NCBI RefSeq assembly: GCF_003018235.1
Contig: NZ_CP027437.1
Strand: one strand, 5' to 3'
Source of the DNA: Escherichia coli
Lineage (GTDB): Bacteria; Pseudomonadota; Gammaproteobacteria; Enterobacterales; Enterobacteriaceae
DNA length: 64,000 bases
The notes beneath the pieces are model-generated. The model saw only the letters and a list, made by a program, of their open reading frames with translations, was not told the origin of the DNA and made no database searches. The stretch's first letter is position 1; every line of letters begins with the position of its first letter. Below are positions 3,197 through 60,780 of this stretch, one piece after another. Position numbers and translations under genes: made by a program.

Positions 3197-4132
3197 ATGA
3201 ACTCTATCAGAGAAAATGATTTAAACCGGGTCGACCTCAACCTGCTAATCGTGTTCCTGGTGCTACATCGAGAGGGGGAGCGTTTCACGTGCAGCCAACA
3301 AGTTACACTTGGGGCAGCCAGCAGTCAGTGGCGCGCTGGCACGGCTGAGAGAAATGTTTAACGACCCGTTATTTGTGCGCACGGCAAAGGGGATGGCACC
3401 GACACCACGTGCACAAGATCTGGTTACGGCACTACTGCCGGTGATGGATCAAATGCAGCAGGTGATTTTTCAAAGGCCAGTTTTTACCCCAGAACAGGAT
3501 CAGCATACGTTTCGCCTGGGGATGAGTGACTGGGTCGAACGCTGGCTGATGCCTGGAATGATGGCAGATATAGCCCAAATGGCACCCGGGATTCGCTTAC
3601 AAGTCACGGCATCCGATCCTTTCCAGGATGGCGAAAAAGTGCAACAGGATAAGGTGGACGTAGCAATCTCCGTCGTGGAGCAGGTGCCCGCCGGAGTGGA
3701 ACGAGAAGTGATCACTCAAATGGGTTTTTGTACGATGTGGCATCCGCTCCAGTTATCTATCACTTCACCGTTAACCCTTGATGTATATACTGAAACCGAC
3801 CATCTTTTGGTCTCTTATCGCGGTGCAAGCAGTAGCTCTATCGATCTGATTTTGGCTGACTGCGGGCGTGGGAAGTGCGTTACGTCACGCCAAATTTCTC
3901 ATCGTTACCGTTGATGTTGAGACAGATACCGGCTTTAGCGACCGTACCGCAGGGGCTGGCAGAAGGTTGGGTAGCCGATTATGGGTTGCAATTTGCCGAT
4001 GTCCCACTCGAGGTTCCTGCTTTTACGCTCTCTCTACTCTGGAATAAGCGGCGTAATAATGATGAGGCGCTGCGCTGGTTACTAGAGAAATTACGTGCAC
4101 GAATGCAGGGCTGGGAGATGTTTTCAGAATGA
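3197..4132 (+). pseudogene. LysR-family transcriptional regulator disrupted by two frameshifts
   Basis: Three consecutive ORFs (3164-3361, 3309-3914, 3875-4132) in frames 2/0/2 together encode one LysR protein (HTH ...SVSRAANKLHLGQPAVSGALARLREMF, then substrate-binding domain); +1 shift in G5 run at 3274-3278, -1 shift near 3860-3875. Confidence 0.7.
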
Positions 4133-23025: not shown

Positions 23026-23402
<377 letters not shown>

Positions 23403-23412
23403 TGTTTTACGT

Positions 23413-27083: not shown

Positions 27084-28073
27084 ATGCATATTACATACGA
27101 TCTCCCGGTTGCTATTGATGACATCATTGAAGCAAAACAACGACTGGCTGGGCGAATTTATAAAACAGGCATGCCTCGCTCCAACTATTTTAGTGAACGT
27201 TGCAAAGGTGAAATATTCCTCAAATTCGAAAACATGCAGCGTACCGGTTCATTTAAAATTCGTGGCGCATTTAATAAATTAAGTTCACTGACCGATGCGG
27301 AAAAACGTAAAGGTGTAGTGGCCTGTTCTGCGGGCAACCATGCGCAAGGGGTTTCCCTCTCCTGCGCGATGCTGGGCATCGACGGTAAAGTGGTGATGCC
27401 AAAAGGCGCGCCGAAATCCAAAGTAGCGGCAACGTGCGACTACTCTGCAGAAGTCGTTCTGCATGGTGATAACTTCAACGACACTATCGCTAAAGTGAGC
27501 GAAATTGTCGAAATGGAAGGCCGTATTTTTATCCCACCTTATGATGATCCGAAAGTGATTGCTGGCCAGGGAACGATTGGTCTGGAAATTATGGAAGATC
27601 TCTATGATGTCGATAATGTGATTGTGCCAATTGGTGGTGGCGGTTTAATTGCTGGTATTGCGGTGGCAATAAAATCTATTAACCCGACCATTCGTGTTAT
27701 TGGCGTACAGTCAGAAAACGTTCACGGCATGGCGGCTTCTTTCCACTCCGGAGAAATAACCACGCACCGAACTACCGGCACCCTGGCGGATGGTTGTGAT
27801 GTCTCCCGCCCGGGTAATTTAACTTACGAAATCGTTCGTGAATTAGTCGATGACATCGTGCTGGTCAGCGAAGACGAAATCAGAAACAGTATGATTGCCT
27901 TAATTCAGCGCAATAAAGTCGTCACCGAAGGCGCAGGCGCTCTGGCATGTGCTGCATTATTAAGCGGTAAATTAGACCAATATATTCAAAACAGAAAAAC
28001 CGTCAGTATTATTTCCGGCGGCAATATCGATCTTTCTCGCGTCTCTCAAATCACCGGTTTCGTTGACGCTTAA
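27084..28073 (+). CDS. tdcB: Catabolic threonine dehydratase TdcB (PLP-dependent)
   Basis: 329-aa ORF; PLP lysine motif context [15 protein letters not shown]. Confidence 0.9.
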
Positions 28074-51848: not shown

Positions 51849-53093
51849 TTAATTACGCAGGGCGCTATTTGCCAGACGATCGTCTTCTGCCTGGCAAGCT
51901 GCCGCAGTGAACAGCACGTCAGTTGAAGAGTTCAGCGCGGTTTCGCAAGAGTCCTGCAATACGCCGATGATAAAGCCAACGGCAACCACCTGCATGGCGA
52001 TATCGTTCGAAATACCGAACATATTACAGGCCAGTGGGATCAGCAGCAAAGACCCCCCCGCCACGCCGGATGCGCCACAGGCACACAGAGAAGCCACTAC
52101 GCTCAACAGCAGCGCTGTGGGCAGATCGACCGGAATACCCAGCGTATTAACCGCAGCCAGCGTCAACACGGTAATGGTGATTGCTGCGCCTGCCATATTG
52201 ATGGTGGCTCCCAGCGGAATAGAAACGGAATAGGTATCGCGATCCAGATTCAGCTTTTCACACAGCGCCATATTCACCGGAATGTTCGCTGCAGAGCTGC
52301 GGGTGAAGAAGGCATACACACCGCTTTCACGCAGGCACAGCAGCACCAGCGGGAACGGGTTACGACGAATTTTCCACCACACCAGCAATGGGTTAACCAC
52401 CAGCGCCACCAGTAACATACAGCCAACCAGCACGACCAGCAGTTGCGCGTAGCCCCACAGTGTGGAGAAACCGGTGGTTGCCAGGGTAGAAGAAACCAGA
52501 CCAAAAATACCGATCGGTGCGAAGCGAATGACCAGTTTCACCATAAAGGTGACGGCATTCGACATATCGTTGATCAGGTTTTTGGTGGTCTCGTTACCGT
52601 GACGCAGTGCGAAACCGAGGCCAATTGCCCACACCAGGATCCCGATGTAGTTACCTTTCAGCAGCGCGTCGATGGGGTTGGAAACCATGCTCATTACCAG
52701 CCCGCGCATCACTTCTACAATGCCTGACGGCGGCGAAATATCACCCGCGCTACTGGATAAGTGTAGGGTAGAAGGGAAGGCAAAGCTGAAGACTACTGCG
52801 GCCAGAGCAGCAGAGAAGGTGCCCAGCAGATAGAGGAACAAAATAGGGCGGATATTGGTTTTCTGCCCGTGCTGGTGGTTAGCAATAGATGCCATCACCA
52901 GCATCAACACCAGGATGGGGGCAACGGCTTTCAGTGCGCCGACGAACAAAGTACCTAACAGACCAACAGCTTCCGCCGCGGGTTTTGAGATCCATGCCAG
53001 AAGAATCCCCAGAACAAGGCCGACCAGGATTTGTTTTACCAGGCTGCCATGAGCCAGACGCCGGAATAGCCCCGGTGAACGTTGCGTAGTCAT
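51849..53093 (-). CDS. sstT: Serine/threonine:Na+ symporter SstT
   Basis: 414-aa DAACS-family [28 protein letters not shown]... Confidence 0.9.
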
Positions 53094-53389
53094 TTTTCGA
53101 TCCTTTCATTGTGTTGTCGCACATCCCTGGTGCGTTCTGTCGACGCATCTTTCAGGATGTAACAAAGTGTTTGCAAGGTCGAGTATAAGGAAAGTTACAG
53201 CTTCGGGAAGCGAAAAATGCTGGATTTTAAAGAGAGGTCATGTTTTGCAACTTAATGGTTACATTTGTTTGACATAAACAGAGGGAAGGACTGGCTACTA
53301 AGGCTGATTAGATAACATATGGGCAAAACTATTTGGAATATGAGAACGGTTGCGCTCCTTTAATGTGCTATGCCATATAAAGTCACTGG

Positions 53390-53620
53390 CGCAGGGAGCG
53401 CGCAGGGGGCGGCCAATCGCCGCCGCCCCCTGCACCCCCAGGCTCTGGCGAACAAAATCGCCGCTGCGCGGTTCCCTCAGCTTATCCCTTGCGGCTACCG
53501 GGTCGGGCGTAAGGGAACGTCCCTGTAAGATGCGCCCTCGCCGCGCATCCATGCGCGTCGCCCCGGCCTCCAGGGAACGCTTCGGCGATTTTGACGCCAC
53601 CAACACCCGTGCGGTCTTTT
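53390..53620. other. GC-rich intergenic element with nested inverted repeats (function unknown)
   Basis: Hairpin CAGGGGGCGG/CCGCCCCCTG (53403-53432), long-range inverted repeat CAAAATCGCCG/CGGCGATTTTG (53453-53463 / 53583-53593), palindrome CGCGCATCCATGCGCG (53542-53557), repeated AGGGAACG motif; no convincing ORF. Confidence 0.3.
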
Positions 53621-53708
53621 TGTAAAGAGCTATAAGCCGATTACATAATTAATAGCTCACCTTTGTCTGGAATGAGTTATCTCTAGTAATGGCTTAATAT
53701 ACAGCGAA

Positions 53709-54674
53709 TCATTCTCCCCGCTGCTTATCATGCCGATAATTCACCCAGGCGTTGATAATAAATGTCATCACCAGAATGCCAAACACCACGCCCAGCGAGA
53801 CGGCGATTGGAATATGGTAGAAGTCGACAATCAGCATCTTGATACCGATAAACACCAGAATCACCGCCAGGCCATATTTGAGCATCGAGAAACGTTCTGC
53901 TACGCCCGCCAGCAGGAAATACATCGCACGCAGGCCGAGGATCGCAAACAGGTTTGAGGTCAGCACAATAAACGGATCGGTGGTCACGGCGAAGATAGCC
54001 GGGATGCTATCCACGGCGAAAATCACGTCGCTCAATTCCACCAGAATCAGCACCAGCATCAGCGGCGTGGCATACAGCAAGCCATTCTTACGCACAAAGA
54101 AATGCTCGTTGTCGATGGTGTCGGTCATGCGCAAATGACCGCGTAGCCAGCGCACCAGCGGCTTGTCGCCAATGCCTGATTCATCTTCATGGGCGAGCGC
54201 CATCTTCACGCCGGTAAACAACAGGAAGGCACCGAAGATATACAGGATCCAGTCGAACTGCGAAATCAGCCAGCTGCCAGTGAAGATCATGATGGTACGC
54301 AGAACAATCGCCCCGAGCACGCCATACACCAGCACGCGGCGTTGTAATGCCGCCGGAACAGAGAAATAGCTGAACAACATCAGCCAGACAAAGACGTTAT
54401 CGACCGCCAGCGATTTCTCAATCAGATAACCCGTGAGAAAGGCCAGTGCCTGTGGATCGGCAACGGCGCGACCTTCGGTTTGCACCAGATACCACCAGAA
54501 AGCGGCGTTAAACAGTAACGACAGCGTCACCCAGACCAGCGACCAGGCCGCAGCCTGTTTCATGGTCATGGCATGTGCCCCACGACGCCCCTGCAACAAC
54601 AGGTCGATAGCCAGCATAATGGCGACAACAACAGCGAATCCGCCCCATAGCAACGGCGTGCCGACAGTATTCAT
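53709..54674 (-). CDS. alx: TerC-family membrane protein Alx (putative Mn2+ exporter)
   Basis: 321-aa [30 protein letters not shown]... Confidence 0.9.
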
Positions 54675-60679: not shown

Positions 60680-60780
60680 TTATGTGGTCGGATGAGTTCT
60701 AATTTAGCCGTCGCCAGAGAAAAGGGAAAAGGGGAGTGCGGGGTTTGTGATGGGATTCAAAAAGAATACGCCCGGTGGTA

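Follow-up and report, generated by a model that had tools for sequence, protein, structure and literature searches.

TRIP1d, a copy of the enterobacterial TRIP1/RRS repeat family, is the probable identity of the GC-rich block between alx and sstT in Escherichia coli

The GC-rich block in the alx-sstT intergenic region is already known, being a published member of a published repeat family. It is very probably TRIP1d, a copy of the enterobacterial TRIP1/RRS repeat family, acting as DNA and not as a regulator of a particular gene or locus. The analysis was carried out on a 64-kb stretch of E. coli DNA, here called the window, in which a first-pass annotation had left the block unexplained and had listed, among other candidates, a dispersed repeat family that it could not name. 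This candidate proved correct, the family being TRIP1 and the copy TRIP1d (PMC10888264). The same annotation had stated that a match to a known repeat family would speak against its own label; TRIP1/RRS is such a match, and the identification mostly removes the word "unexplained" from the block. As judged from the sequence, every feature tested is that of a TRIP1 family member.

Identity and borders of the element

The features of the region are given below in window coordinates, with the source of each in brackets. The G-rich strand of TRIP1d is the sense strand for both alx and sstT.

51849..53093, minus strand: sstT, serine/threonine:Na+ symporter, downstream neighbour (ORF list; annotation)
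53094-53708: alx-sstT intergenic region, 615 bp
53349..53615, minus strand (= G-rich strand): TRIP1d repeat, RRS-family element (blastn against K-12 TRIP1a/TRIP1c)
53349..53393, unstranded: AT-richer tail of TRIP1d with a short closing stem, 53351-53355 / 53389-53393 (paralogue alignments; consensus helix 11)
53402..53433, unstranded: perfect GC hairpin of 12 bp with an 8-nt loop (inverted repeat, 100% complementary)
53420..53439, minus strand: G-quadruplex-forming 20-mer GGGGGTGCAGGGGGCGGCGG (exact match to the RRS G4, PMC11194060)
53447..53598, unstranded: large branched domain, with stem 53453-53468 / 53578-53593 plus 53447-53450 / 53595-53598 (inverted repeat, folds)
53505..53537, unstranded: hairpin 2, with a GGGCGC.../...GCGCCC stem (consensus helices 8 and 9)
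53539..53560, unstranded: hairpin 1, with 10-nt arms and the G-strand loop AUGGAU (inverted repeat; contains the sequence first described as a palindrome)
53709..54674, minus strand: alx, TerC-family Mn2+ exporter, upstream neighbour (ORF list; same-locus annotation in other genomes)

The TRIP1 family was first described by Rudd (1999, Res Microbiol 150:653), whose K-12 copies were TRIP1a between aqpZ and lysO, the internally deleted TRIP1b after putP, and TRIP1c after dusC/yohI. Two further TRIP1 loci were defined by Li et al. (2024, Genes 15:236, PMC10888264) in a survey of 6725 mostly draft genomes. According to that survey, TRIP1d is 264 bp long, has a GC content of 62-65%, and is located with the alx stop 96 bp upstream and the sstT start 255 bp downstream. 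The same spacing was observed in the window, with 96 bp between the alx stop codon and TRIP1d and 255 bp between TRIP1d and the sstT start codon. Applying the published distances to the window resulted in 53349-53612 (264 bp), while the measured homology borders were 53349 and 53615. In the work of Pham et al., RRS was equated with TRIP1, the RRS being TRIP1a and TRIP1c (PMC11194060).

Using blastn, TRIP1d was found to be 87.6% identical to K-12 TRIP1a (lysO-aqpZ) over 53349-53615 (267 bp) and 87.5% identical to K-12 TRIP1c (yohP-dusC) over 53349-53632 (287 aligned columns). K-12 TRIP1b was matched in two blocks, of 90.7% and 87.1% identity, located on either side of its internal deletion. By homology, the element spans approximately 267 bp (53349-53615), the right border being 53632 in the comparison with the K-12 dusC copy. 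The window contains one copy.

The GC content was 65.9% for TRIP1d and 68.8% over 53390-53620, compared to 39% in the remaining intergenic region, which confirmed the block of about 70% GC in an AT-rich spacer that had been reported initially. The extent of the block had been given as 53390-53620; the block is real, but homology begins at 53349, approximately 40 bp further left. The AT-richer tail found there (53349-53389) terminates in the invariant GTTGCGCTCC, as seen in the paralogue alignments, and its end is represented on the G strand by the family-invariant GGAGCGCAAC. The hairpin, long-range inverted repeat, motifs and GC-rich block of the first-pass annotation were all recovered at their sites. 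The repeated motif AGGGAACG is located at 53512 and 53572 and occurs a single further time in the 64 kb, at 27568. The statement that the block does not belong to the REP sequences was consistent with the findings, the unit being about 265 bp long, present in at most five copies and devoid of an internal REP consensus.

Distribution among genomes

The element was detected by megablast in 5425 of 5426 complete E. coli genomes, at one to five places per genome (median 3). Copies of at least 99% identity were confined to about a fifth of the complete E. coli genomes; in the remainder, copies were approximately 90% identical and were located elsewhere. The entire 615-bp intergenic allele was present in 1659 of the 5426 complete genomes (31%). 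Since genomes carrying this 615-bp allele show four places by megablast, TRIP1d is an additional copy and not a replacement. In about 70% of the complete E. coli genomes, K-12 included, the alx-sstT locus is without the element. The K-12 spacer, from which it is absent, measures 398 bp instead of 615 bp, and the best K-12 match is found between yohP and dusC. From the copies at other loci and the absence in K-12, it follows that the block is a low-copy dispersed repeat and is not specific to alx or sstT.

The BLASTN check for additional copies, as proposed earlier, yielded paralogues in nearly all E. coli genomes. For the comparison across species, one genome per species was scanned with a 26-mer of the perfect hairpin as query. 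Copies were obtained from Escherichia species, Pseudocitrobacter and Kluyvera, together with one obvious contaminant contig. At least seven copies were counted in one Kluyvera genome and five in another, and this expansion was the only hint of mobility. One Kluyvera copy sits between urtA- and urtB-like ORFs, and many Kluyvera copies are found at contig ends. Plasmid copies were considered as a sign of mobility and were discarded, as they correspond to the chromosomal putA-putP-efeU block on a large plasmid. TRIP1a and TRIP1c have frequently been inverted in nature, both orientations occurring in genomes, and two TRIP1a/1d rearrangements are on record (PMC10888264).

Hairpins and conservation of pairing

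The inverted repeats that had been reported in the block were verified individually. The arms of the 10-bp hairpin (53403-53412 / 53423-53432) are perfect, and the true stem comprises 12 bp (53402-53413 / 53422-53433). No part of the family is more conserved than this hairpin, which shares sequence with the 3' portion of the G4 motif; the hairpin was unchanged in all 22 aligned copies, which is partly by construction, as the copies were retrieved with its own 26-mer. The 11-bp long-range inverted repeat (53453-53463 / 53583-53593) is likewise perfect and can be extended to 16 nt with 88% complementarity. It belongs to the outer stem of the branched domain, which encloses inner helices and the two hairpins. 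A 16-bp palindrome had been placed at 53542-53557; this sequence is self-complementary in 14 of 16 positions but is not perfect, and represents a 7+2+7 inverted repeat within the 10-nt-arm hairpin. The apical region of hairpin 2 reads ACAGGGACG on the G strand.

Folding as single-stranded DNA gave -81.4 kcal/mol (z -5.3) for the minus strand and -79.3 kcal/mol (z -5.6) for the plus strand, and folding of the minus strand as RNA gave -142.7 (z -4.45). In each of the three cases, none of 200 shuffles was as good. The description of the block as highly self-complementary was thereby confirmed, folding being better than that of shuffles on both strands (z about -5).

Conservation of pairing was assessed on a MAFFT alignment of 22 full-length copies, with a consensus structure derived without G-U pairs. 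In this structure, 99.3% of the cells pair. Compensated double changes were observed at six pairs (28 cells), compared to 0-1 pairs in controls in which the partners were slid by 1-3 columns. Helices 1-6 of the branched domain are 98-100% paired in the consensus and contain compensated changes at columns 29/166 and 45/135. The other four compensated pairs are specific to the TRIP1d lineage. Three of these are in hairpin 1 (columns 61/80, 64/77 and 66/75), where both bases differ from TRIP1a/c and still pair, and one is in hairpin 2 (columns 90/110).

Because six base pairs show compensatory changes over the 22 copies, the hairpins are conserved across the family. Covariation, which the first-pass annotation had named as a check, supports conserved pairing, with 22 copies and few independent events. 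The compensations of the TRIP1d lineage indicate, at the level of the alignment, that the hairpins are maintained rather than merely inherited, the events having occurred in essentially two lineages, Kluyvera and TRIP1d. The same covariation signal fits hairpins of DNA or RNA, on either strand. Wobble pairs, counted with the structure derived without G-U pairs, were distributed 6 versus 3 between the strands. A preference for the G strand, based on a 17:2 excess of G-T wobbles, was rejected, as this excess arose from allowing G-U pairs on that strand.

The G4 motif and the direction of replication

The 20-mer listed above is the sole match to the RRS G4 in the 64-kb window, even when up to three mismatches are allowed, with 0 matches expected in shuffles. 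With a G4Hunter score of -1.84, it ranks in the top three sites of the 64 kb.

The orientation of the motif was determined as follows. Compared to K-12, the window runs in the opposite direction: rnpB is on the plus strand, and alx and sstT are on the minus strand here and on the plus strand in K-12. In a complete TRIP1d-bearing genome whose numbering starts at thrL, both alx and sstT are located on the plus strand at 3.07 of 4.53 Mb, which places the locus in the left replichore. On the plus strand of the window, the GC skew is +0.016 and the ratios of Chi and KOPS sites are 13:6 and 3:1, respectively. On the basis of skew, Chi and KOPS, the plus strand is the leading-strand sequence, that is, the lagging-strand template. 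The G4 is on the minus (alx-sense) strand and therefore on the leading-strand template. TRIP1d is a natural RRS paralogue in "inverted" orientation, with its G4 on the leading-strand template. Applied to the two K-12 copies, this reasoning gives the lagging-template G4 that was published for both, at lysO (G4 on plus, right replichore) and at dusC (G4 on minus, left replichore). Local GC skew near the element was rejected as a marker of replication direction, being too noisy, and was replaced by whole-window skew, Chi, KOPS and synteny.

By synteny, the locus corresponds to 3.2396 Mb in K-12. On the K-12 map, dif is about 1.65 Mb away from it and oriC about 0.69 Mb. The distance of about 1.65 Mb from dif counts against TRIP1d sharing the position that is thought to be important for RRS function.

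Alternative explanations

The alx-sstT locus is polymorphic (1659 of 5426 genomes with the element), and the family is multi-copy, strongly self-complementary as is common among MITEs, and expanded in Kluyvera (at least seven copies in one genome). These properties would suit a functionless, MITE-like non-autonomous mobile element inserted between alx and sstT. Such an insertion is nevertheless quite unlikely. No terminal inverted repeat joins the two ends, and a by-eye search of the borders revealed no target-site duplication. A simple insertion with K-12 as the empty site was rejected, as the K-12 allele is a different segment containing another dispersed GC-rich repeat, with allele-specific flanks. 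In E. coli each copy has a fixed locus and at most five copies occur. The sequence is also very highly conserved from genus to genus and the K-12 pair is conditionally essential, which points to a function of the family that is under selection. It is extremely improbable that the element is a terminator or insulator between alx and sstT, or a small protein gene, as the RefSeq "hypothetical protein" would have it. Its location 96 bp past the alx stop, with other copies 38-70 bp past a stop codon, and its very stable hairpins, which could make RNA polymerase pause or shield 3' ends, would be compatible with a terminator. However, no terminator-like site was found on either strand, no U-tract follows the last hairpin on the alx-sense strand, and K-12 and about 70% of the strains are without the element at this site. 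As for a protein, the initial statement that the block has no plausible ORF requires correction: two ORFs, one of 102 aa on the minus strand and one of 91 aa on the plus strand, run across the element, and the former, which spans it, is annotated by PGAP in some genomes. No frame is open in all 22 copies on either strand. Protein coding was rejected because the 102-aa frame is closed by stops in the K-12 paralogues and because the copies differ by frame-shifting indels, of 1 nt at columns 16 and 89, and by the loss of 1 nt at column 169. In DNA of 66-69% GC, moreover, open frames as long as this are to be expected. The RefSeq "hypothetical protein" annotated over the element in some genomes is almost certainly spurious.

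A function at the RNA level, in which the G strand is transcribed as a 3' extension of alx and serves as a structured 3' UTR, an sRNA or a protein sponge resembling TwoAYGGAY, is also improbable. An Rfam scan had been proposed as a check on the block; at the gathering threshold there was no match anywhere near the element, and the sole signal, below threshold, was TwoAYGGAY (RF01731, clan CL00106), on the G strand of all three full-length copies. The window copy scored 29.9 bits (E = 0.12) and the K-12 copies 30.9 and 30.6 bits, with E values of 0.12-0.23 per search. These scores of about 30 bits are far below the TwoAYGGAY gathering score of 43, the three copies are paralogous and not independent, and covariance-model scores are inflated by GC-rich hairpins; membership of TwoAYGGAY was therefore rejected and only the resemblance was retained. 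Consistent with the resemblance, the loop of hairpin 1 is AUGGAU, and in Kluyvera its second base varies (AGGGAU, AAGGAU) with GGA invariant. Hairpin 2 of K-12 reads UUACAGGGAUGU, which is close to the CsrA SELEX consensus. The RNA fold (z -4.45) and the presence of compensatory pairs would likewise agree with a structured transcript. TwoAYGGAY RNA (Rfam RF01731; Weinberg et al. 2010, PMC2864571) is known from gamma-Proteobacteria among other taxa and has been proposed to bind or sequester CsrA, and transcription of TRIP1 repeats has also been speculated on (PMC10888264). On the other hand, a link between CsrA and TRIP1 loci is absent from the literature found. The orientation of the flanking genes varies, the G strand being sense to dusC and alx and the C strand sense to aqpZ and putP, and TRIP1a and TRIP1c naturally occur in both orientations. 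Promoter-like sites in the intergenic region are found only at the edges and are unremarkable; on the minus strand, no promoter-like site lies upstream of the element inside this region, and a terminator is absent. The wobble counts (6 versus 3 pairs, structure without G-U) favour neither strand. The candidates originally put forward for this locus, a structured 3' UTR or sRNA of alx and a regulatory leader of sstT, found no support, since the element is missing from the locus in about 70% of the genomes, copies are present elsewhere with varying orientation relative to their neighbours, no Rfam match reaches the gathering score and no terminator-like site is present.

Proposed action of TRIP1d

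The reading of TRIP1d as an RRS-family repeat acting as DNA draws on published work on the K-12 copies (Pham et al. 2023, NAR 51:5527, PMC10287960; Pham et al. 2024, NAR 52:6392, PMC11194060; see also Kusi-Appauh et al. 2026, bioRxiv 10.64898/2026.06.16.732529). RRS-lysO and RRS-dusC have 222-bp cores located about 650 kb on either side of dif (PMC10287960, PMC11194060), in an inverted, symmetric placement flanking the Ter macrodomain (Pham et al. 2023/2024). Each contains one G4-forming sequence, GGGGGTGCAGGGGGCGGCGG, on the lagging-strand template (PMC11194060). The G4 site stops Pol I, II and IV in vitro and, wherever an RRS is placed with its G4 on the lagging-strand template, lagging-strand gaps of about 2 kb are formed that load RecA and SSB; the pair is conditionally essential and affects supercoiling genome-wide (PMC10287960, PMC11194060). 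In the published experiments with inverted RRS, the RecA/SSB peak was absent in vivo, and in vitro the G4-on-leading orientation gave a gap frequency of about 66% with gaps of about half the size. The results with the inverted orientation imply that the C-rich strand is the weaker polymerase block.

By analogy, the action of TRIP1d would be as follows. When the fork unwinds the duplex, the strands of TRIP1d would fold into very stable hairpins, and the G-rich strand would additionally form a G-quadruplex; hairpins and G-quadruplex would then obstruct DNA polymerase. At the K-12 lysO and dusC copies, as shown by others, each passage of the replisome leaves a post-replication single-strand gap loading SSB and RecA. 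With the G4 of TRIP1d on the leading template, no strong RecA/SSB peak would be expected in vivo, and at most rarer and smaller lagging-strand gaps would result from hairpins of the C-rich strand. Because of this inverted RRS orientation, TRIP1d is predicted to be a weaker gap trigger than the lysO and dusC copies, a prediction based on published data for K-12 copies that are about 12% divergent and oppositely oriented. TRIP1d may show hardly any replication phenotype, or none, and could be a neutral passenger, engineered inversions having been negative for RecA/SSB peaks in vivo. It is an accessory, strain-variable extra copy and also offers the other copies a partner for homologous recombination.

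Implications

The family is of current interest, its two conserved copies, the RRS elements, being conditionally essential sites of programmed post-replication gaps with an effect on genome-wide supercoiling. The present analysis adds one small point, stated in neither source paper: an intact G4 on the leading-strand template is present in an accessory copy in about 30% of complete E. coli genomes. Natural strains thus already provide the "inverted extra RRS" experiment. In addition, repeat copies such as TRIP1d can break assemblies or seed inversions.

A further proposal is very much a long shot. The TRIP1/RRS core, which on the G strand is a long stem around two GGA-looped hairpins, might be a distant gammaproteobacterial relative of TwoAYGGAY that, when transcribed (here as a 3' extension of alx), binds CsrA or another RNA-binding protein, as a second role beside its DNA-level effect. 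In a more modest variant, TRIP1d, as a natural inverted RRS, would give about one third of the strains a weak-gap site. If the RNA version were true, the TRIP1/RRS family would gain an RNA-level role beside its DNA-level effect on replication. If the more modest version were true, strain-specific weak gap formation and altered supercoiling would be expected in the left non-structured region in about one third of E. coli.

Comparison with known systems

Like TwoAYGGAY RNA, the G strand of TRIP1d has a long outer stem around two adjacent hairpins, the first with the loop AUGGAU. The second hairpin aligns poorly and its loop departs from the AYGGAY consensus of both terminal loops, TRIP1d having AGGGAC and K-12 having AGGGAU, each with a purine in place of a Y. 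Kluyvera copies also contain AGGGAU or AAGGAU in hairpin 1. REP/BIME sequences are similarly GC-rich, palindromic, extragenic and dispersed in enterobacterial genomes; REP units, in contrast, are about 35 bp long and present in hundreds of copies, compared to about 265 bp and at most five copies for TRIP1d. The REP-derived Rfam model naRNA4 (naRNA4/REP325) matched elsewhere in the K-12 loci and not on the element. Some BIMEs influence DNA topology as gyrase binding sites (PMC11194060).

The only comparable case cited by Pham et al. is the pilE-associated G4 of Neisseria gonorrhoeae. In both systems, a bacterial G-quadruplex that folds during replication or transcription would lead to a gap or nick feeding recombination. 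The pilE G4 is unrelated in sequence; it serves a single purpose at its position upstream of pilE, requires an sRNA promoter and is not surrounded by a 200-bp hairpin scaffold.

The element described here and TRIP1d of Li et al. (PMC10888264) have the same locus, borders, length and GC content. Identity to TRIP1a was 89% in that study and 87.6% here (blastn), and the frequency of TRIP1d was 23% of 6725 genomes there versus 31% of 5426 complete genomes here. Their account of TRIP1d draws no connection to RRS, the G4 motif or the direction of replication.

With respect to RRS-lysO and RRS-dusC, TRIP1d differs in the template that carries the G4, which is the lagging-strand template in the RRS pair and the leading-strand template in TRIP1d, and in position, the pair being located about 650 kb from dif at the Ter flank and TRIP1d, by synteny, far from it. 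As judged from strand orientation and genomic position, TRIP1d does not qualify as an RRS in the functional sense. Unlike the RRS pair, it occurs in only about one third of strains, and its hairpin 1 has been rebuilt with different base pairs. At the same time, TRIP1d is homologous to these two elements over the full 222-bp core and beyond, at approximately 87.5% identity. The G4 20-mer is identical, and the branched hairpin architecture is common to all three, with compensatory changes preserving it.

Structured RNA and G4Hunter signals in the window

A single Rfam match at gathering score was obtained within the window, namely:

23027-23403, + strand: rnpB, the RNase P RNA (RF00010, 318.6 bits)

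The inversion of the window with respect to K-12 is confirmed by the plus-strand position of this gene. rnpB also explains the strongest G4Hunter signal on the plus strand of the window (23063-23094). Around 60730-60755 lies another site, the third in the window, whose 25-nt G4Hunter score reaches at least 1.75 in absolute value.

Gene call across the repeat

In some genomes, a 100-aa 'hypothetical protein' (WP_001441093.1) was called by RefSeq/PGAP across TRIP1d, the GC-rich hairpin repeat between alx and sstT:

53298-53606, - strand (2419-2721 in locus L003): open reading frame called as hypothetical protein

A comparable call adjoins the putP copy of the repeat on a plasmid-borne segment. 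The reading frame of WP_001441093.1 is not kept in the TRIP1 paralogues, and the call is therefore probably spurious.

Copies in other replicons and genera

The few plasmid matches of the repeat were found to correspond to a chromosomal putA-putP-efeUOB block, including TRIP1b, the internally deleted K-12 copy following putP. They do not represent an independently mobile copy. The block is located as follows:

NZ_CP194962.1, 201984-207069: putA-putP-efeUOB block with TRIP1b on the 243-kb plasmid pEC16-AU-EG1 (L036)

A TRIP1 copy with 95% identity was retrieved from a 'Bacillus sp.' assembly (L029, NZ_JABWSY010000051.1; 583-bp contig, coverage 0.72), and is evidently E. coli contamination. Its 3′ flank is of the putP type, yet the copy is full length and its hairpin 1 is of the TRIP1d type. 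Together, these features hint that K-12 TRIP1b may be a deletion derivative of a TRIP1d-like full-length ancestor.

In Kluyvera, copies of the TRIP1/RRS family were far above the E. coli number, with at least seven in Kluyvera genomosp. 1 (L008-L014) and at least five in K. cryocrescens (L020-L024). Several are positioned at contig ends and one 52-kb contig carries three copies. One copy is apparently located inside an operon:

L021, 2774-3026: TRIP1/RRS copy between urtA-like and urtB-like open reading frames

The Kluyvera copies suggest that the family is able to proliferate.

Two alleles of the alx-sstT spacer

The alx-sstT spacer is polymorphic in the GC-rich repeat it carries (window 53094-53708 versus 3547-3944 in the K-12 locus, L005). 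In K-12-type genomes, TRIP1d is replaced by a different, boxC-like palindromic repeat of approximately 170 bp (CCCTCTCCC...GGGAGAGGG...GGGGTGAGGG). Because the sequences adjoining the two repeats also differ by allele, interpretation of the alleles as a filled and an empty site was ruled out. The K-12-type repeat is itself dispersed, occurring at a median of five places per genome; in 2772 genomes, at least one place spans 80% or more of its length.
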